Shown here piece by piece: positions 1 to 7,570 of a stretch of 7,570 nucleotides of DNA. The first letter of the stretch is position 1, and every line of letters begins with the position of its first letter. Location: positions 1 through 7,570 of IMG/VR virus record IMGVR_UViG_2585427790_000004; one strand, written 5' to 3'. The notes under the pieces were generated by a model. It was not told the DNA's origin, did not search any database, and saw nothing but the letters and a program-made list of their open reading frames with translations. Source of the stretch: a virus (Duplodnaviria; Heunggongvirae; Uroviricota; Caudoviricetes). The position numbers were made by a program, and so were the translations under genes.

Positions 1-93
1 GCACTGGCGCTCGGGCGTCGTGCGATTGGCGTTGAACTGGAGACCGGACGTTTTGAGCAGACAGTCAGGGAAGTTCAGGATTTAATCGTTTGA
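1..93 (+). CDS. 3' end of an ORF entering from upstream (5' partial); C-terminus resembles a beta-class DNA N6-adenine/N4-cytosine methyltransferase
   Basis: Frame 1 is open from position 1 to TGA at 91-93 and translates to ALALGRRAIGVELETGRFEQTVREVQDLIV*. The A-x-x-G-R-R-x-I-G-x-E pattern resembles the segment after the FxGxG AdoMet motif near the C-terminus of beta-class methyltransferases. Only 30 residues are visible, so the family call is tentative. Confidence 0.4.
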   Translation, partial: ALALGRRAIGVELETGRFEQTVREVQDLIV

Positions 94-104
94 AACGGAT
101 GATA

Positions 105-133
105 TTGAAGAATTAATTACGCGTCGTTATTAT
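105..133 (+). promoter_or_regulatory. sigma70-like promoter for the tRNA cluster
   Basis: TTGAAG at 105-110, a 17-bp spacer, then TATTAT at 128-133; the first tRNA begins at 143, about 9 nt downstream. Confidence 0.5.
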
Positions 134-142
134 GCGGCTCCC

Positions 143-218
143 GGCCCTTTAGCTCAGTGGTGAGAGCGAGCGACTCATAATCGCCAGGTCGCTGGTTCAA
201 ATCCAGCAAGGGCCACCA
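143..218 (+). tRNA. ileZ: tRNA with CAU anticodon, most likely tRNA-Ile2 (lysidine type) rather than tRNA-Met
   Basis: Cloverleaf read by hand: acceptor GGCCCTT (143-149) pairs with AAGGGCC (208-214), discriminator A, encoded CCA at 216-218; D stem GCTC/GAGC; anticodon loop CTCATAA; T loop TTCAAAT. Closely resembles E. coli ileX as I recall it. The symbol follows the 933W naming from memory. Confidence 0.85.
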
Positions 219-225
219 TCACATA

Positions 226-302
226 CCGCCATTAGCTCATCAGGATAGAGCGCCAGCCTTCGAAGCTGGTTGCGCGGGGTTCGAGTCCTCGATGGCGGTC
301 CA
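226..302 (+). tRNA. argN: tRNA-Arg (anticodon UCG, reads CGA/CGG)
   Basis: Acceptor CCGCCAT (226-232) pairs with ATGGCGG (292-298), discriminator T, encoded CCA at 300-302; D stem GCTC/GAGC; anticodon stem CCAGC/GCTGG with loop CTTCGAA (anticodon TCG at 260-262); T loop TTCGAGT. Unusual C1:G72 first pair. Starts 7 nt after the previous tRNA. Confidence 0.8.
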
Positions 303-315
303 TTATCTGTACCCT

Positions 316-392
316 GCGTTGTTAGCTCAGCCGGACAGAGCAATTGCCTTCTAAGCAATCGGTCACTGGTTCGAATCCAGTACAACGCGCCA
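316..392 (+). tRNA. argO: tRNA-Arg (anticodon UCU, reads AGA/AGG)
   Basis: Acceptor GCGTTGT (316-322) pairs with ACAACGC (382-388), discriminator G, CCA at 390-392; anticodon stem ATTGC/GCAAT with loop CTTCTAA (anticodon TCT at 350-352); T loop TTCGAAT. Resembles E. coli argU. Confidence 0.88.
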
Positions 393-406
393 CACTTATT
401 TTCCCT

Positions 407-432
407 GGCTCGCTTTTGCGGGCCTTTTTTTT
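407..432 (+). terminator. rho-independent terminator after the tRNA cluster
   Basis: Stem GGCTCGC (407-413) / GCGGGCC (418-424) with one G-U pair, loop TTTT, followed by a run of 8 T (425-432). Confidence 0.7.
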
Positions 433-627
433 AAATGTCTCACAATTCAGACGGTTGACTGTTGTCTGGTTGGCGGGGAGTTTGTTAAAAGAAACTGGCA
501 TGGTGAATCCCCCTGTGCGGAGGGGCAATCAGCGAGTAGGTATATGGGATAATCGCGGATTCAGGTGCTGGTACTGAATTCACCGGGAGGCACCCGGCAC
601 CATGCAATGGCACATAGCGCCACTCTC

Positions 628-662
628 CAGCCCCTCTCCGGAGGGGCTGTTTATATTGATTT
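628..662 (+). terminator. rho-independent terminator-like hairpin
   Basis: Perfect 9-bp stem CAGCCCCTC (628-636) / GAGGGGCTG (641-649), loop TCCG, followed by the T-rich tract TTTATATTGATTTT. It lies just before the convergent end of the minus-strand ORF at 684. Confidence 0.5.
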
Positions 663-683
663 TGTCAGATGTGAGTAAACTGC

Positions 684-1019
684 TTATGGACTTTGTTGTT
701 TTAGCCCATAAGGACATATTTGCAGAGTGCAACGGTTATTAAAGCATTCATTCAATACGTTATCTGTATTTGTAGGGCATTCCTGGCTGTTTTTGATTAA
801 ATTCCAGAATGTTTTATTGAATGGTACTACGTTGTAAATGGTTACAGGTAGCACTTTGTTATTGAGCATGATGCCTGTGTGAGTCAGTGTAAATATACTT
901 TCAGGAGGTAAGAAAGCATCCGATTGATACCAGATTATTAATTTTATTTTACTCCATATGACTGAAAAAGATATTCCGCATGATGGCTGGATAACTGTAT
1001 CAATCACAATCCACTTCAT
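684..1019 (-). CDS. hypothetical 111-aa protein in an AT-rich island, no family recognised
   Basis: Open frame of 111 codons in very AT-rich DNA, where stop codons are frequent. Good Shine-Dalgarno AAGGAA 6 nt upstream of the ATG (complement of 1017-1019). A candidate sigma70 promoter lies upstream on the minus strand (TTTACA / TATACT, complement of about 1060-1086). The protein ([22 protein letters not shown]...) matches nothing I know. Confidence 0.4.
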
Positions 1020-1279
1020 TTAGTTTCCTTGTTTATGCCTTGCTGGTGATGTTCTGAAAAGTATAAATGATATTTTTGATTGTAAACCATAGAGCAGAAT
1101 TATTTTTCTGATGTTGTTTATTGTTTATTTAAATGCAGGGTGGTTTATATCTCGTCTTGTAGTTTATCCATGCATATCTGCTTGATGATGAGGTTTTTAT
1201 TTAAGGTATGGTTTTGTGTTTTTTCTGTATTACATGTCAGGTATTTTAAAGAATCATTTTTCAGATGGTGGAAAGAACC

Positions 1280-3136
1280 ATGGCATTTAAACACTATGAT
1301 GTTGTCAGGGCGGCGTCGCCGTCAGATCTTGCGGAAAAGCTGACACATAAACTGAAAGAGGGCTGGCAGCCGTTTGGTAGTCCGGTGGCCATAACCCCTT
1401 ATACCCTGATGCAGGCGATTGCAGCAGAAGGTGATGTGGTGGTCAGTGGTGCAACTGAGCCGGATTGGTACTACGTCATCGTACTGGCCGGGCAGTCCAA
1501 TGCCATGGCTTACGGTGAAGGGCTTCCGCTGCCGGATTCATACGATGCGCCCCATCCGCGCATTAAGCAACTGGCCCGTCGTAACACAGTGACTCCCGGT
1601 GGTGAAGTATGCGTATTTAACGACATCATTCCTGCTGACCATTGTCTGCATGATGTTCAGGATATGAGTACGATTAACCATCCCCGGGCTGACCTGAGCA
1701 AAGGGCAGTACGGCTGTGTCGGACAGGGCTTACATATTGCCAAAAAACTGCTTCCGTATATCCCGAATAACGCGGGGATCCTGCTGGTACCATGCTGTCG
1801 TGGTGGTTCGGCATTCACCCAGGGCGCGGAGGGGACATTCAGTGCGGACACGGGGGCCAGCCAGGATTCGGCACGCTGGGGTGTGGGTAAACCGTTATAT
1901 CAGGACCTGATCGCACGCACCAAAGCGGCATTACAGAAGAACCCGAAAAATGTGTTGCTGGCGGTGTGCTGGATGCAGGGCGAATTTGACATGAGCGCTG
2001 CCACCTACGCACAGCAACCGGACCTGTTCACGGCCATGCTGAAGCAGTTCCGTACTGACCTTTCCGGATTTAACGCGCAGTGCCATGGCGGCAGTGCTGC
2101 AGTTGTACCGTGGATTTGTGGCGACACGACGTATTACTGGAAAAACACATACGGCACACAGTATGACTCCGTCTACGGCGCGTACAAAAACAGGGAGAGC
2201 GACAACGTTTTCTTTGTGCCGTTCATGACCGACGGTAACGGCAACAACACGCCCACCAACTTACCGGCAGAAGACCCGGATATTGCTGATGCAGGTTATT
2301 ACGGCGCGCAATCCCGTAGTAATGGTAATTGGGTATCGTCAAATCGTCCGACACATTTCAGTTCATGGGCGCGCAGGGGCATTATTTCGGATCGCCTGGC
2401 AACCGCTATTCTGAACGCAGTTGGTCGAACCAGCGCCTTCATCAGCGGTACCGCACCGGAGATTAAACCCTCGCCCGGCGGCGACACGCCATCGGGGCCG
2501 TCTGATGGTGACACATCCGTTCGTACAGTCTCCCTGCTGCCGACAGCCGGAGAGGCTGCTGCGCAGGGCTGGACCATCACCGGCGGCAGTGTTGCGCTGG
2601 AAGATGGTGTGTTTAAGGTTACCAAGCAGAGCAATAAAACCTGGTCCCTGATGCATCCGGTGGATGACGCAGTCTCCCTGCTGACACGGGGTGGCAGACT
2701 GAGCTGTAAGTTTCGACTGTCAGGCGCACTGATCAACAACCAGTTCGGTCTGGGAATTTATCTGTATACCGATGTAGCGTTACCTGACGTCGTGGCGATG
2801 ACCGGGACTGGTAACCCGTTCCTGATGTCGTTCTTCACCCAGACCACAGACGGCAAACTGAATCTGATGCATCACAGGAAAGCAGGAAACACAAAGTTGG
2901 GCGAGTTCGGGAATTACAGTAACGACTGGCAGACGCTGGAGCTGGTGTTCACCGCCGGCAGTGCCACGGTTACTCCGAAACTGAATGGAGTGGCTGGCCC
3001 GGCATTCCAGGTCATAAAAGACAGTCTGACACTGGGGCTGAATGCGCTGACGCTGACGGATATTACCAAAAATGCAGCGTATGGCGTTGAGATAGAAAGT
3101 CTGGTGCTGGAGATAAATGCACCGGCATCATCATAA
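1280..3136 (+). CDS. nanS-p: prophage sialate 9-O-acetylesterase (NanS-p-like, SASA/DUF303 family)
   Basis: Long ORF (1265..3136 in the ORF track). Contains the GQSN block (VIVLAGQSNAMAYGEG) typical of SGNH-type sialate O-acetylesterases, and sits between the tRNAs and the holin as nanS-p does in Stx phages. Start placed at ATG 1280 (MAFKHYDVV...) because GGTGGAAAG precedes it; the in-frame ATG at 1265 has no Shine-Dalgarno. Confidence 0.85.
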   Translation: MAFKHYDVVRAASPSDLAEKLTHKLKEGWQPFGSPVAITPYTLMQAIAAEGDVVVSGATEPDWYYVIVLAGQSNAMAYGEGLPLPDSYDAPHPRIKQLARRNTVTPGGEVCVFNDIIPADHCLHDVQDMSTINHPRADLSKGQYGCVGQGLHIAKKLLPYIPNNAGILLVPCCRGGSAFTQGAEGTFSADTGASQDSARWGVGKPLYQDLIARTKAALQKNPKNVLLAVCWMQGEFDMSAATYAQQPDLFTAMLKQFRTDLSGFNAQCHGGSAAVVPWICGDTTYYWKNTYGTQYDSVYGAYKNRESDNVFFVPFMTDGNGNNTPTNLPAEDPDIADAGYYGAQSRSNGNWVSSNRPTHFSSWARRGIISDRLATAILNAVGRTSAFISGTAPEIKPSPGGDTPSGPSDGDTSVRTVSLLPTAGEAAAQGWTITGGSVALEDGVFKVTKQSNKTWSLMHPVDDAVSLLTRGGRLSCKFRLSGALINNQFGLGIYLYTDVALPDVVAMTGTGNPFLMSFFTQTTDGKLNLMHHRKAGNTKLGEFGNYSNDWQTLELVFTAGSATVTPKLNGVAGPAFQVIKDSLTLGLNALTLTDITKNAAYGVEIESLVLEINAPASS

Positions 3137-3220
3137 AAAGTGAGCCAGTCAAATGGAAGGTATCGTTAAACTCACCGGTAGTGTCAGTGGGTCGTCTGAG
3201 ATGCCTGCATGAGTTATCAG

Positions 3221-3252
3221 AGCCATCAGTACTTAACTGGTGGCTTTTTTTA
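3221..3252 (+). terminator. rho-independent terminator between nanS-p and the holin
   Basis: Stem AGCCATCAG (3221-3229) / CTGGTGGCT (3237-3245) with one G-U pair, loop TACTTAA, followed by six T and TAT. Confidence 0.6.
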
Positions 3253-3286
3253 TTGTTGTCAGCTTCCGGATAACGGGAGACGGGGT

Positions 3287-3502
3287 ATGTACCAGATGGA
3301 AAAAATCACAACAGGTGTGTCATACACCACGTCAGCGGTGGGAACGGGCTACTGGTTCCTGCAGTTGCTGGACAGGGTTTCCCCGTCTCAGTGGGCGGCA
3401 ATAGGCGTGCTGGGGAGTCTGCTGTTTGGGTTGCTGACATATCTGACTAACCTGTATTTCAAAATCAGAGAGGACCGTCGTAAGGCGGCGCGGGGAGAGT
3501 AA
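3287..3502 (+). CDS. S: class II holin (phage 21 S-like, 71 aa)
   Basis: [71 protein letters not shown]: two transmembrane segments and a charged C-terminus, near-identical in layout to the S21 holin as recalled. GGGAGA Shine-Dalgarno 6 nt upstream. Met1 and Met4 give a dual-start motif. The track ORF from 3209 is an unsupported N-terminal extension. Confidence 0.85.
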
Positions 3503-3506
3503 AGCG

Positions 3507-3851
3507 ATGAAGAAAAAATACGAACTGGTTGTTAAAGGGATAAATAATTACCCGAATAAGATTACTGTTACTGTGGCACTGGAAATTGGTGGGTATCCGT
3601 CACTGTTGTTGCCAGATGTGGCGATTAGTCTTGACCGTACTGAAGATGCCACGCTGGAGTTTTACGAAGCTGAGGCGAAAAAGCAGGCGAAGCAGTTTTT
3701 CATGGATGTTGCTGCCGGGTTATGTGAAGGGGATGGTCCGTTGCCGGAAAAGCGCCCCGTAATTTTAGAGGCGCAGGATGTGTTGATAACCTACAGAGGA
3801 AAACTACCGGGAATAATTACTGGTTCTCTGAAGACTCCACCGCTGGCCTGA
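3507..3851 (+). CDS. 114-aa protein of unknown function, probably DUF1327 (YdfR-like)
   Basis: Begins 5 nt after the holin stop and lies between holin and endolysin, the position of ydfR in the Qin prophage as I recall. The family assignment is from memory of similar proteins, not a search. Confidence 0.65.
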   Translation: MKKKYELVVKGINNYPNKITVTVALEIGGYPSLLLPDVAISLDRTEDATLEFYEAEAKKQAKQFFMDVAAGLCEGDGPLPEKRPVILEAQDVLITYRGKLPGIITGSLKTPPLA

Positions 3852-3901
3852 AGACTTAACATATCCAGGGATTTGAAATCGATAAACCCTGATAAATATC
3901 C

Positions 3902-4435
3902 ATGAACACCAAAATCAAATACGGCCTGTCGGCTGCCGTTCTGGCGCTGATTGCCGCAGGTGCGCCTGCGCCTGAAATCCTCGACCAGTTTCTGGATGAA
4001 AAGGAAGGTAACCACACCACGGCATACCGTGATGGCGCGGGTATCTGGACCATCTGCCGCGGTGCCATCCTGGTGGATGGCAAACCTGTCGTTCCGGGCA
4101 TGAAGTTGTCGAAGGAAAAATGCGACCGGGTTAACGCCATTGAGCGTGATAAGGCGCTGGCATGGGTGGAGAAAAACATCAGAGTGCCATTGAGTGAACC
4201 CCAGAAAGCGGGGATCGCGTCATTCTGTCCGTACAACATTGGCCCCGGTAAGTGTTTTCCGTCGACGTTTTATAAACGAATTAATGCAGGTGATCGCAGG
4301 GGAGCGTGTGAGGCGATTCGCTGGTGGATTAAGGACGGTGGCAGAGACTGCCGTATTCGCTCAAATAACTGTTACGGTCAGGTATCCCGTCGTGACCAGG
4401 AGAGCGCGCTGGCGTGCTGGGGAATCGACAGATAA
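3902..4435 (+). CDS. R: SAR endolysin (phage lysozyme, GH24 / T4-lysozyme fold)
   Basis: N-terminal Gly/Ala-rich weakly hydrophobic segment (MNTKIKYGLSAAVLALIAAGA) typical of signal-anchor-release endolysins, followed by the catalytic E-x8-D-x5-T spacing (EGNHTTAYRDGAGIWT). 177 aa. Confidence 0.9.
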   Translation: MNTKIKYGLSAAVLALIAAGAPAPEILDQFLDEKEGNHTTAYRDGAGIWTICRGAILVDGKPVVPGMKLSKEKCDRVNAIERDKALAWVEKNIRVPLSEPQKAGIASFCPYNIGPGKCFPSTFYKRINAGDRRGACEAIRWWIKDGGRDCRIRSNNCYGQVSRRDQESALACWGIDR

Positions 4436-4525
4436 GCAGAATATTTTGCTAATCAATGACGTTGGCCAAGGCGGACGGATAACACGAAATCCTGCGAACT
4501 GGCAAAATGTAAGTGAATAAAAGTA

Positions 4526-4558
4526 AAAACCCCGTTTGTTGGCTGCAAGCGGGGTTTT
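4526..4558. terminator. bidirectional terminator-like hairpin in the R-Rz gap
   Basis: 9-bp stem AAAACCCCG (4526-4534) / CGGGGTTTT (4550-4558) around a 15-nt loop; T-rich sequence follows on both strands. The large loop makes strength uncertain. Confidence 0.35.
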
Positions 4559-4633
4559 GTGTTTCCTGACTCTGGAAAAGTCAAAGGAGAAAGTGTGTTT
4601 GATTTTAGCAAACTGATTCGGGAGATTCGAGTG

Positions 4634-4732
4634 ATGGCTGGAAAATTATCCACCTGGAAGTTCATTCTTATCTGGCTGGTGTTTGTGATTATGGCCTCCG
4701 GTTATTTCATCGGTCAGATACGCTGGTGGTGA
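4634..4732 (+). CDS. possible 32-aa single-pass membrane peptide (alternative GTG start at 4595 gives 45 aa)
   Basis: Not in the ORF track because it is too short. ATG 4634 to TGA 4730-4732 encodes MAGKLSTWKFILIWLVFVIMASGYFIGQIRWW with a hydrophobic core. GGGAGA lies 8 nt upstream of the ATG, and AGGAG lies 5 nt upstream of the GTG at 4595. Its stop is 1 nt from the Rz start (TGAAATG). Confidence 0.35.
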   Translation: MAGKLSTWKFILIWLVFVIMASGYFIGQIRWW

Positions 4733-4733
4733 A

Positions 4734-5201
4734 ATGAACCGCGTACTGTGCGTGGTCATCATTGCCCTGCTGGTGGCCTGTGGTGCGCTTAGTCTGGGGC
4801 TGAATCATTACCGTGATAACGCCATAACCTACAAAGAGCAGCGCGATAAAAAAGTCAGTGAGCTGGAGCAGGCAAATGCAACCATTACTGATATGCAGCA
4901 GCGCCAGCGTGATGTTGCTGCACTTGATGCCAGATACTCGAGGGAATTAGCCGATGCGAGAGCTGAAAATGAAACTCTGCGCGCTGACGTTGCCGCTGGT
5001 CGTAAGCGCCTGCGGATCAACGCCACCTGCCCCGGTACCGTGCGTGAAGCCCCCACCACCTCCGGCGTGGATAATGCAACCGGCCCCCGACTGGCAGACA
5101 CCGCTGAACGGGATTATTTCACTCTCAGAGAGCGGTTGATGCTGACGCAGAAGCAGCTGGAAGTGGCGCAGGAATATATCCGCACTCAGTGCCTGAAATA
5201 A
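4734..5201 (+). CDS. Rz: Rz inner-membrane spanin (i-spanin)
   Basis: N-terminal transmembrane segment (MNRVLCVVIIALLVACGALSL) followed by a charged, coiled-coil-like periplasmic domain; position after the endolysin; 155 aa. Confidence 0.9.
   Translation: MNRVLCVVIIALLVACGALSLGLNHYRDNAITYKEQRDKKVSELEQANATITDMQQRQRDVAALDARYSRELADARAENETLRADVAAGRKRLRINATCPGTVREAPTTSGVDNATGPRLADTAERDYFTLRERLMLTQKQLEVAQEYIRTQCLK
4954..5139 (+). CDS. Rz1: Rz1 outer-membrane lipoprotein spanin (o-spanin), embedded in Rz in the +1 frame
   Basis: MRELKMKLCALTLPLVVSACGST...: lipobox LVVSAC and a proline-rich mature region (CVKPPPPPAWIMQPAPDWQTPLNGII) very like lambda Rz1 as recalled; wholly inside Rz. Confidence 0.85.
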   Translation: MRELKMKLCALTLPLVVSACGSTPPAPVPCVKPPPPPAWIMQPAPDWQTPLNGIISLSESG

Positions 5202-5229
5202 GTTTTGCTGATGCGCGGTATTGTCGCCG

Positions 5230-5294
5230 TATCCCCGCATTAACAGAGACCGCAGCCCGACCGGGAGACTCCTCTGCGCGAGTGTGCGGGGATA
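5230..5294. repeat. long imperfect palindrome at the Rz / tail-fibre junction
   Basis: TATCCCCGCA (5230-5239) is the exact reverse complement of TGCGGGGATA (5285-5294); inside are nested pairs CAGAG/CTCTG and CCCG/CGGG. No T-run follows. Confidence 0.5.
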
Positions 5295-5295
5295 A

Positions 5296-6742
5296 TCAAA
5301 AACGATACACACCGGGGTTTCTGCAGCAAAAACCTCTGAAACAAATGCAAAGACTTCAGCAGATAATGCTGCTTCCTCTAAGGCGGCAGCCGCATCGTCA
5401 GCCAGTTCAGCGGCGTCATCGGCATCATCTGCGTCTGCTTCAAAAGATGAGGCGACCAGACAAGCGTCAGCAGCGAAAGGTAGTGCCACGACAGCAACAA
5501 TGAAAGCATCAGAGGCAGCTGGTAGTGTGACGGCGGCAGCTCAGAGCAAAAGTACGGCGGAATCCGCGGCAACGCGCGCCGAGACAGCAGCAAAACGGGC
5601 AGAGGATATTGCATCCGCCGTGGCGCTGGAGGATGCGAGCACGACGAAAAAGGGGATAGTACAGCTCAGCAGTGCGACCAACAGCACTTCCGAGTCACTG
5701 GCGGCAACGCCAAAAGCGGTTAAGGCGGTAATGGGTGAAACGAACAAGAAAGCGCCCTTAAATAGTCCTGCACTGACCGGAACGCCAACAACACCAACTG
5801 CGCGACAGGGAACGAATAATACCCAAATCGCAAGCACGGCTTATGTTATGGCTGCGATCGCTGCCCTCGTGGACTCGTCGCCTGACGCACTGAATACGCT
5901 GAACGAGCTGGCTGCGGCGTTGGGCAACGACCCGAATTTTGCGACCACCATGACTAACGCGCTTGCGGGTAAGCAACCGAAAGATGCCACCCTGACGGCG
6001 CTGGCCGGGCTTGCTACTGCGGCAGACAGGTTTCCGTATTTTACGGGGAATGATGTTGCCAGTCTGGCAACCCTGACAAAAGTTGGGCGGGATATTCTTG
6101 CGAAATCGACCGTTGCCGCCGTTATCGAATACCTCGGTTTACGAGAACTCGGCACAAGCGGGGAGAAAATACCGTTACTCAGTACAGCGAATACCTGGAC
6201 TAATCGACAAACATTCAGCGGTGGCCTTTCTGGTGAACTATCCGGCAATGCTTCTACAGCTGCAAAATTAAAAACTGCCAGGAAAATAAGCAATGTGGCT
6301 TTTGATGGTTCCTCCGATATCACATTAAAAGCAAGTCATGTTGGTGCGTTTGCCTTAGGGAAAACAGGAAGCACCGTTGCGAATGATAAAGCAGTTGGAT
6401 GGAACTGGAGTAGCGGAGCCTATAACGCAACTATTAGTGGTGCATCAACGTTAATTATTCATTTTTATATGGGAGAAGGAAGTTGTCCTGCAGTTCAGTT
6501 TCGGATTAATTATAAAAATGGCGGTATTTTTTATCGTTCAGCCCGTGATGGTTATGGTTTTGAAGCCGACTGGTCCGAATTTTACACCACCACCAGAAAA
6601 CCTTCAGCAGGAGATGTTGGTGCACTGCCGTTATCTGGTGGTCAACTGAATGGTGCACTGGGTATCGGAACATCCAGTGCTCTTGGCGGTAATTCGATTG
6701 TATTGGGTGATAATGACACGGGCTTTAAACAAAATGGCGATG
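5296..6742 (+). pseudogene. side tail fibre (Stf-like) gene fragment, missing its 5' end and cut at its 3' end by the IS
   Basis: The frame of track ORF 5500..6903 is open back to the TAA at 5293-5295 with no start codon before 5500, and already encodes Ala/Ser-rich fibre repeats (ETNAKTSADNAASSKAAAASS...). It continues with GIVQLSSATNSTSESLAATPKAVKAV and ...LGDNDTGFKQNGD, typical of lambdoid Stf and T4 gp37-type fibres. After GD the frame runs into IS sequence at 6743. Confidence 0.8.
6122..6147. other. gix/hix-like DNA-invertase crossover site inside the tail-fibre gene
   Basis: TTATCGAATACC TC GGTTTACGAGAA: two 12-bp inverted half-sites around a 2-bp core; its reverse complement matches the Mu gixL site as I recall it (TTCCTGTAAACCGAGGTTTTGGATAA) at 22 of 26 positions, with the central AAACCGAGGTTT identical. 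Confidence 0.5.
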
Positions 6743-7570
6743 TGAACCGCCCCGGGTTTCCTGGAGAGTGTTTTATCTGTGAACTCAGGCTGCCAGATCA
6801 TCGTTTCCGATGGAAGCATAATAAGCTTTTTCTGCTTCTGCCGGAGGAGTATGGCCCAGCCTTTCCAGCAATCGTCGATTGTTATACCAGTCCACCCACG
6901 TGAGTGTGGCCAGTTCCACTTCTGCACGGTTTTTCCAGCTCTTACGGTGTATTACCTCCGCTTTGTAAAGACCATTGATGCTCTCCGCCATCGCGTTGTC
7001 ATACGAGTCGCCTGTACTTCCTGTTGATGCCAGTAATCCGGCTTCCTTAAGCCGCTGTGTGTAGGCCAGCGATACATACTGAGAACCTTTATCACTGTGA
7101 TGGACCGTGCCGGACGGTCGACGGGCCCATAACGCCTGCTCCAGTGCATCCAGCACGAATGTCGTTTCCATGGACGATGAGACCCGCCACCCCACGATGT
7201 ATCCGGCAAACACATCAATGATGAACGCCACATAGACGAAGCCCCGCCATGTGCTGACGTAAGTAAAATCAGCCACCCACAGCTGGTCAGGTCGTTCTGC
7301 CACGAACTGACGGTTTACGCGGTCGCCTGCGACAACGGCTTTCCGGCTGATGGTCGTACGGACCTTTTTACCCCGGAGAACACCGGCAAGTCCCATAACC
7401 GCCATGAGACGTGCCACAGTGCATCTGGCCACTCTGATACCTTCCCGTAACAACTGACGCCAGACTTTACGCACACCGTATACCTTGTGATTTTCATCGT
7501 ATACGCGCTGTATCTCTTTCTTCAGCCAGTCATCGCGCTGCGCACGGGCACTGCGTTTATCCGGATGATG
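6743..7570 (-). mobile_element. IS3-family insertion sequence (IS629-like), 3' part; continues beyond the window
   Basis: The tail-fibre frame breaks at 6743, where a terminus beginning TGAACCGCCCCGGG starts (IS3-family ends are 5'-TG...CA-3'). The transposase OrfB stop lies about 40 bp inside that end. Confidence 0.8.
6785..7570 (-). CDS. IS3-family transposase OrfB (DDE integrase domain), N-terminus beyond the window
   Basis: Track ORF 6785..7474 plus an open in-frame extension to 7570 (...HHPDKRSARAQRDDWLKKEIQRVYDENHKVYGV RKVWRQLL...). DDE-type blocks are present: LWVADFTY, HHSDKGSQY, YDNAMAESINGLYKAE. Matches IS629/IS1203-type OrfB from memory. Confidence 0.9.
   Translation of the reverse strand, partial: HHPDKRSARAQRDDWLKKEIQRVYDENHKVYGVRKVWRQLLREGIRVARCTVARLMAVMGLAGVLRGKKVRTTISRKAVVAGDRVNRQFVAERPDQLWVADFTYVSTWRGFVYVAFIIDVFAGYIVGWRVSSSMETTFVLDALEQALWARRPSGTVHHSDKGSQYVSLAYTQRLKEAGLLASTGSTGDSYDNAMAESINGLYKAEVIHRKSWKNRAEVELATLTWVDWYNNRRLLERLGHTPPAEAEKAYYASIGNDDLAA

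Follow-up and report, generated by a model that had tools for sequence, protein, structure and literature searches.

The stretch analysed here, referred to as the window, comprises 7,570 nucleotides (nt) of a Caudoviricetes record (IMG/VR IMGVR_UViG_2585427790_000004, positions 1 to 7,570). It is read as part of a decaying lambdoid prophage in which a deletion with 2-bp microhomology has joined the sequence behind the lysis gene Rz to an internal fragment of the side-tail-fibre gene (stf), and in which a 10-bp inverted repeat near the joint is stem P2 of a module of ~185 nt that would fold on the strand of the late transcript. The probability given to this combined reading is about 0.8. The original prediction, made from the window alone, had taken the repeat for the junction itself and had offered two explanations for it, a recombination scar or a structured regulatory element.

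The joint was located by comparison with relatives on both sides. With a 601-bp probe over the junction, matches in thousands of E. coli genomes and in 420 phage records were confined to the first 321 bases, ending at position 5320, and the Rz-side match through 5320 was 100% to E. coli EC21Z-078 and 93.5% to intact Shiga toxin 1 (Stx1) phages. Matches to the fibre probe began at window position 5319. Base by base, and with a slash at the break, the left parent reads ...GGGGTTT/ACCGCG... and the right parent ...CTGCTT/CTGCAG...; since the window follows the left parent to 5320 and the right parent from 5319, the break is the TT at 5319-5320. No repeat other than this 2-bp TT was found at the joint. 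A deletion mediated by an insertion sequence (IS) was ruled out, as no IS end lies at 5319-5320. No site with 80% coverage of the probe or more was present in the 5,426 complete E. coli genomes searched or in 50,697 phage records, and an exact 27-mer across the junction gave 0 matches in GTDB species representatives and 0 in JGI metagenomes. Its one match was IMG/VR contig UViG_2585427782_000003 (L005), which carries the same junction and differs from the window by four bases, all at 103-124 just upstream of the first tRNA gene, the other 6,100 bases being identical. The joint is real, given this independent contig. Shigella would be a candidate host, in view of the IS load and the absence of the junction from complete E. 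coli genomes. In the proposed mechanism, illegitimate recombination at the 2-bp microhomology would have joined a point 119 bp past the Rz stop codon to stf codon 355/356, with the repeat taking no detectable part.

The perfect 10-bp inverted repeat was found as described from the window (TATCCCCGCA at 5230-5239 and TGCGGGGATA at 5285-5294, with nested pairing inside). It is not the junction, because it ends at 5294 and the joint lies 25 bp further right, and it is not a recombination scar, because it lies wholly within the Rz-side parent and is found in hundreds of intact phages. Perfect 10-bp repeats with a loop of at most 60 nt occur twice in the window, compared with a mean of 0.51 in dinucleotide shuffles, 31% of which contained at least one. 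The second (6460-6469 / 6511-6520) is inside the stf coding sequence, indicating that such repeats arise here by chance. The local fold at the first is unexceptional on either strand (z = -1.5). In most relatives the DNA repeat is imperfect (8-9 of 10), with pairing retained through G·U or compensation. Whatever significance the repeat may have comes solely from comparison with these relatives.

A role for the repeat as the junction, as a scar, or as the site or cruciform behind the rearrangement is considered very improbable. The repeat is merely 25 bp from the break, and other lesions fall close to it. In three contigs of one genome (L040, L043 and L044, about position 3061), an independent deletion of ~19 kb has its left breakpoint exactly where the same arm of P2 ends on its 3' side and reaches into the last part of J, and in a further locus (L070, about 3325) an IS1 element is inserted 10 bp beyond that breakpoint. 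On the other side, intact phages and prophages carry the repeat and the next 25 bp in one uninterrupted run with the Rz side, the parents have just TT in common at the break, and the fold is not unusually stable. Moreover, cruciform extrusion would need a much stronger palindrome than a 10-bp stem with a 45-nt spacer.

Comparison of 80 loci encoding close Rz relatives showed that the sequence from window position 5211 (ATGCGCGGTATTG...) is a discrete block, which comes directly after Rz, after an extra small gene, or after bor and a terminator. The upstream flanks are wholly different among the three contexts, several unrelated downstream contexts occur, and the boundaries are sharp. The block extends ~70 nt past window position 5320 before unrelated sequence begins, giving a module of ~185 nt in total, with the lysis cassette (or bor) on one side and the terminase/cos region on the other. 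It was present in 65 of the 81 Rz-anchored loci, in 398 phage records and in 1,911 of the complete E. coli genomes (about a third), with up to 9 copies. Carriers include BP-4795, mEp460, P13374, 933W-like Stx phages and Salmonella S137. They span siphoviral lambda-like phages, HK97-like packaging types and short-tailed Stx phages (933W-like and P13374), and both tail types of Stx phage are represented. No annotated RefSeq feature lies under the module among the matches listed. With a covariance model built from 52 representative copies, a copy was detected in lambda at 46,863-47,048 (L237 2364-2549), between bor and lambdap78, at 119 bits (E = 3e-35); the truncated window copy scored 131.8 bits and full copies 220-234 bits.

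The module does not code for protein. Any given frame is open in at most 18 of the 52 copies, stop codons interrupt all six frames of the EC21Z copy, and the indels are not multiples of three. The coding interpretation, which exists as 'ORF B85' of an Stx1 phage and as mEp460_059, was ruled out because no frame is conserved. A 17-base pattern scan of species-diverse genome contigs gave 19 matches, 5 of them real copies, some of these in MAG (metagenome-assembled genome) bins with evident contamination; most were chance matches in unrelated phyla. Full copies of the E. coli phage module were observed on three short contigs (L101, L110 and L115) assigned to a Candidatus Nanosynbacter metagenome-assembled genome (MAG), a Thiomicrorhabdus assembly and a soil 'Proteobacteria' MAG, and these copies are probably contamination or mis-binning in public assemblies.

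An RNAalifold consensus of 37 pairs was obtained. Helix P1 is formed by window positions 5218-5224 / 5302-5308, P2 by 5230-5240 / 5284-5294 (the repeat) together with 5243-5244 / 5282-5283, and P3 by 5251-5255 / 5274-5278. P4 and P5 lie right of the junction in full copies, and only the 5' strand of P4 (GGG at 5314-5316) is kept in the window. An extra 5-bp helix, S1, holds the 5' strand of P5 in its loop, giving an H-type pseudoknot in which P5 is S2, with a 2-nt L1 and a conserved purine-rich 10-nt L3, GGUGGAAGAA. The modelled fold would be a long irregular hairpin (P1-P2-P3), a small hairpin P4 and the H-type pseudoknot S1/S2. In the window the 5' hairpin domain is intact, P4 has lost its 3' strand, and nothing of the pseudoknot remains. 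Natural truncations part the two domains in the window, in the L044-type deletion, at the IS1 insertion and at the iss locus of ColV plasmids.

The last of these cases was seen in about 550 IncF/ColV plasmids, which carry only the 5' domain of the module (P1-P3), ~170 bp from the serum-survival gene iss, the bor homologue; one example is pH2291-144 (NC_025139.1; L238 2490-2595). Identity is 82% and some pairs are broken. The 520 conjugative plasmids first matched were ruled out as an independent context for the module, as this is the phage-derived iss (bor) locus. The module lies there on the opposite strand from iss, mirroring the bor-then-module order of lambda, and the copy is truncated just past P1, like that of the window. 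Unlike the window, the plasmid locus is a phage remnant carried with iss, outside any late operon.

Both arms of the stems change together in divergent copies. P2 reads UAUCAUCGCA / UGCAAUGAUA in Salmonella S137, CACCUCCACA / UGUGGAGGUA in an IMG/VR variant (L152) and UAUUCCCGGA / UCCGGGAAUA in lambda, where P2 is compensated by a CG-to-GC swap; in S137 and L152, two to three adjacent P2 pairs are changed. S1 occurs as GUCGC/GCGAU, CUCGC/GCGGG, GCCGC/GCGGU and CCAG/CUGG, and P5 as GUCCGGU/ACCGGAC, GUCCUGU/ACAGGAC and UCUCGAU/AUCGAGA. Pairs were counted on a MAFFT alignment with S1 included (42 pairs, 2,159 cells). Pairing was found in 98.1% of the cells, and 16 of the 42 pairs showed changes on both sides, compared with 6.5 ± 1.4 in shuffles (0 of 500 reached 16) and 2-9 in slid controls. 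The cells changed on both sides numbered 60, against 13.8 in shuffles. A first covariation test with 24 close variants had given 0 compensatory pairs, with shuffles equal to the real data; close variants differ one-sidedly, mostly by C to U giving G·U, and the signal appeared only once copies of 75-85% identity were added.

A neutral explanation was also weighed, in which the module is conserved through recent kinship or through exchange as a recombination linker and its structure has no function. Mosaic joints of lambdoid phages are known to carry conserved boundary sequences, most copies share over 80% identity, and the 24 close variants lack compensatory change. However, 16 pairs carry double changes in divergent copies, multi-pair swaps included, G·U strongly exceeds A·C on one strand, and loops and junctions are more conserved than stems. 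The neutral explanation is rated rather improbable. The repeat as one stem of a conserved, covarying module is in line with the structured element that had been named as the second explanation.

The pairing is strand-specific: 98.1% of the cells pair on the plus strand and 87.6% on the minus strand. G·U accounts for 211 cells and A·C for 11. The plus strand is the sense of the pR' late transcript, and a position in the pR' late operon implies that the module is transcribed during lytic growth. The module would act as a cis RNA on this transcript. That it is a processing, stability or expression-control element at the lysis/packaging boundary is a tentative proposal, and on balance an unlikely one. 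The presence of at least three unrelated terminase systems among carriers, with and without bor, makes a terminase- or bor-specific DNA site unlikely.

Searches against known elements were negative. Rfam 15 gave no match at E <= 1 over window 5202-5320, and a full copy from an intact Stx1 phage gave only chance matches to small nucleolar RNAs and microRNAs at E <= 5. No intrinsic terminator was detected within 5202-5320, the sole site in 4400-5700 being at 4526-4558; unlike a terminator, P2 has a 45-nt loop and is followed by AAUCAAAAAC. No promoter was predicted around the spacer. HK022 put, nut/boxB, the lambda 6S/tR' region and STnc100/PasD may be compared in their way of working, being likewise sense-strand structured RNAs in phage operons that are conserved across mosaic relatives. 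They differ from the module in location, show no sequence or Rfam model similarity to it, and do not share its architecture of ~185 nt with a long hairpin and an H-type pseudoknot. The arrangement S1a-L1(2 nt)-S2a-S1b-L3(10 nt)-S2b, with stems of 5 and 7 bp that both covary, resembles H-type pseudoknots with an A-rich L3, such as frameshift stimulators, SAM-II and preQ1-type riboswitches. The module pseudoknot is outside any open reading frame (ORF) and is thus not a frameshift signal. Unlike SAM-II and the preQ1 type, it matches no riboswitch model, and the domain is absent from the window.

The extent of the loss was defined by mapping against intact relatives. In E. coli MLI114 (L087), which carries an uninterrupted prophage of the same architecture, window 5211-5320 corresponds to 26332-26223 (97.3%) and window 5319-6742 to 3936-2513 (99.7% identity). 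Relative to MLI114, 22,288 bp are missing, comprising 21 genes and the first 1,064 nt of stf (codons 1-355). The lost genes are those for YnfO, HNH, terS, terL, capsid, portal, connector, tail proteins, tape measure, L, K, I, J and lom. Relative to a lambda-type prophage at the ompW site, BEC1-S17-ESBL-09, about 21.5 kb are missing. The large deletion originally predicted from the adjacency of a truncated fibre gene and the lysis cassette is thus supported. In EC21Z and BEC1 a lambda-type cosN (GGGCGGCGACCT), flanked by lambda-like sequence, is found 135 bp to the right of the breakpoint; it had 0 matches in the window with up to one mismatch allowed. The deletion would have removed cos together with every packaging, head and tail gene.

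The fibre remnant agrees with this. As predicted, the stf frame opens at 5296, after the TAA at 5293-5295 and 95 bp past the Rz stop, and translation confirmed that it contains no ATG, GTG or TTG before the ATG at 5500. Its first 8 codons (5296-5319) are read-through of Rz-flank sequence. Window position 5320 starts fibre codon 356, so the frame open from 5296 is the native fibre frame lengthened leftwards by 8 codons. In relatives stf has 941 codons (L003 2937-5762), and the ATG at 5500 is codon 416. Because the remnant has no start until codon 416 and cos and the particle genes are lost, the element is predicted to be unable to make or enter particles. The prophage is accordingly predicted to be defective, as first proposed: the terminase-to-J genes and cos are absent from the window, and the fibre gene is truncated.

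The opposite possibility, an alternative genome architecture of a working phage with the fibre gene normally placed after Rz, deserves next to no credence. Nothing was found in its favour. The fibre sequence starts at codon 356 of 941 without a start before codon 416, the conserved module is severed mid-helix, cos is absent from the window, and an IS interrupts the fibre gene at its far end. The adjacency was found in 0 of the 50,697 phage records and 0 of the 5,426 complete E. coli genomes, whether in an intact phage whose fibre gene is complete or otherwise.

The nearest relative is EC21Z-078 (NZ_CP101257.1), whose prophage remnant adjoins ompW/yciE/trp. Window 1-5320 matches it at 99.96% and window 5319-6142 at 99.88%, with 4,526 bp between the two segments. 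It resembles the window in the tRNA-iraM-esterase-lysis cassette and in the stf allele, being 99.9% identical on both sides of the junction. Unlike the window, it still has cos, lom, stf codons 1-355 and the module in full. Its invertible fibre segment points the other way, and no IS is present at the same stf position in the region examined. It also has an internal deletion of its own (L002 6684-8965), through which a fragment of terS is joined to the last two-thirds (3' part) of J. Given this terS'-'J fusion, the lesion of the window may equally be one ~22-kb deletion or a second deletion of 4.5 kb. In the two-step history, an EC21Z-type terS'-'J deletion came first and a 4.5-kb deletion then swallowed that junction. 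To the left and right of the joint alike, EC21Z-078 is much the closest relative, and the interval deleted in the window wholly encloses the EC21Z junction. On the other hand, the terS'-'J junction is limited to four clonal EC21Z genomes among the 5,426, and independent single deletions from a common intact ancestor fit equally well. The two-step history is rated at somewhat less than an even chance.

The Qin prophage of K-12 (nohA-stfQ-tfaQ-pinQ) may serve as the textbook analogue of the deletion. It is likewise a lambdoid remnant in which an internal deletion has placed the packaging end of the late operon next to a truncated side-tail-fibre gene, and like the window it has kept lysis genes and contains an IS; its fibre gene is followed by tfa and the Pin invertase. 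The left break of Qin lies inside nohA (terS), with cos-proximal sequence kept, whereas that of the window lies upstream of cos, inside the module. Only a P5-like vestige of the module is retained in Qin (14.6 bits).

Several points weigh against the combined reading. The consensus structure was derived from the same alignment that was used for testing, and S1 was picked out by visual inspection. Close kinship among many copies inflates the cell counts, and the pair and type counts less so. In lambda S1 is degenerate (3 of 5 pairs) with P5 kept, and one large variant group lacks the inner tip of P3 through a 10-nt deletion, indicating that parts of the fold are dispensable. We infer the RNA role from strand asymmetry and position only. 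Three different lesions were found inside the module, within a stretch of about 30 bp, among the 81 loci, and the region could have a weak role as a fragile spot or could merely be tolerated noncoding DNA. The DNA that would tell one deletion step from two is itself gone from the window. Finally, the module might act as DNA, as a single-strand priming or packaging signal near cos or as a protein site, a possibility regarded as clearly improbable. In cos phages it lies 135 bp to 1.45 kb upstream of cos, folded single-stranded DNA also tolerates G·T wobble, and a near-Chi octamer, GATGGTGG, is present in the pseudoknot loop, oriented for RecBCD entering from cos. In short-tailed Stx phages (Sepvirinae), however, an unrelated terS lies ~110 bp downstream of the module and the vicinity lacks a lambda-type cos, a wobble bias on one strand is not expected of double-stranded sites, and the octamer varies freely (GGGGGTGG, GGTGGTGG, TGGCACGG). 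A Chi site at GATGGTGG was ruled out, since the octamer is variable and true Chi was never found there.

Judged by its predicted gene content, the window covers the late region of a lambdoid prophage in decay. The features below were taken from the ORF listing and from Pfam, NCBIfam and Rfam searches, with comparisons to relatives where named.

143-215, 226-299 and 316-389, plus strand: three tRNA genes (Ile, Arg, Arg); Rfam tRNA matches, names from the near-identical EC21Z-078 (L002) annotation.
469-658, plus strand: STnc100-family small RNA (sRNA) locus; Rfam RF02076, 133 bits (gathering score 47).
684-1019, minus strand: iraM-like anti-adaptor gene; NCBIfam NF007393, E = 5e-48.
1265-3136, plus strand: SASA-family carbohydrate esterase (NanS-p type); Pfam DUF1737, SASA and DUF6645, and the L002 annotation.
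3287-3502, plus strand: class II holin; Pfam PF04971.
3507-3851, plus strand: YdfR/DUF1327; Pfam PF07041.
3902-4435, plus strand: lysozyme R; Pfam PF00959.
4595-4732: 45-codon ORF preceding Rz; ORF listing.
4734-5201, plus strand: Rz i-spanin, stop TAA at 5199-5201; Pfam PF03245, E = 4e-48.
4954-5139, plus strand: ORF in another frame within Rz, encoding the Rz1 lipoprotein from about 4969; Pfam PF06085, E = 6e-21.
5211-5320, plus strand: 5' part of the ~185-nt structured module; alignments A1 and A3, consensus fold and covariance model.
5319-5320, no strand: deletion junction, 2-bp TT common to both parents; comparison of L001/L002 (left) with L003/L004 (right).
5320-6742, plus strand: internal stf fragment, codons 356-829 of 941; 99.7% to stf of WS3294A and MLI114, Pfam Phage_fiber_2 and gp37_C.
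6116-6142, no strand: crossover site of a Pin/Gin-type invertible fibre segment, within the stf fragment; EC21Z-078 comparison.
6743-7570, minus strand: IS3-family insertion sequence running past the window end; NCBIfam transpos_IS3, E = 2e-85.

The order tRNA-esterase-holin-YdfR-lysozyme-Rz/Rz1 is collinear with intact Stx1 phages and E. coli prophages, and the tRNA trio is typical cargo of the late region of lambdoid and Stx phages. The STnc100 locus is placed between the tRNA genes and iraM. In a 2026 preprint (10.64898/2026.05.13.724894), STnc100 is linked to the PasD sRNAs, and PasA/PasC are located next to the esterase and holin genes; by analogy, the esterase-holin spacer at 3137-3286 may hold a candidate PasA/C-like sRNA. 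The terminator-like hairpin at 4526-4558 (14 pairs, then GTGTTTCC) lies between the lysozyme gene and the 45-codon ORF. A sub-threshold Rfam match to isrG was observed on the minus strand at 5339-5596 (18.9 bits, gathering 100, E = 0.078), in the Ala/Ser-rich fibre repeat region, and is treated as chance or tail-fibre sequence similarity.

The remaining fibre sequence has undergone further change. The crossover site of ~26 bp, TTATCGAATACCTCGGTTTACGAGA, at window 6116-6142 also occurs at positions 25 and 3109 of L087 and at 6720 and 9804 of L088. In EC21Z-078, window positions 5319-6142 and 6116-6742 match opposite strands, hybrid copies of the site lie at both ends, a 3.1-kb fibre segment is flipped, and recombinase remnants are annotated. 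Inverted sites and both orientations, as in Pin/Gin/Cin-type segments, were thus found, and the invertase gene lies outside the window. Contig L005 ends precisely at window 6142, as expected of an assembly break at an invertible repeat. Homology to stf ends at 6742, at codon 829/830, where the IS terminal repeat begins. Copies of this IS with 100% identity are annotated as IS3 family transposase in many E. coli, and its terminal sequence, TGAACCGCCCCGGG, may be akin to that of IS629/IS1203. The IS3-family element would have cut the fibre remnant later, and both simple insertion and IS-mediated deletion are possible at 6743, the far side of the IS being outside the window. The ORF at 5500-6903 (467 codons) is a spurious fibre-IS chimera, and no recorded protein is identical to its 467-residue translation.

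No published description of the module was found in full text, sequence strings included, within a scope that left out subscription literature and catalogues like PMC10690425, a 2023 collection of over 10,000 candidate structured RNAs of viruses in which the module may be included. The Pas sRNA preprint (10.64898/2026.05.13.724894) and a lambda RIL-seq preprint (10.1101/2024.10.31.621285; LPR/6S) concern other loci. That the module is a real, undescribed and widespread structured RNA family of lambdoid late operons, with the repeat as its central stem, is a serious possibility, although the odds lie slightly against it.

The deletion is ordinary prophage decay and matters for annotation only: the locus is predicted neither to yield particles nor to enter them, and the 467-codon ORF is no gene. 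The repeat, by contrast, led to a conserved, covarying and unannotated element in the best-studied phage family. The module would serve annotators as a marker of the lysis/packaging boundary in mosaic prophages. Should it prove to be a functional RNA, the 25-kb late transcript would have a so far unrecognised level of control or processing, set between its lysis genes and its packaging and morphogenesis genes.

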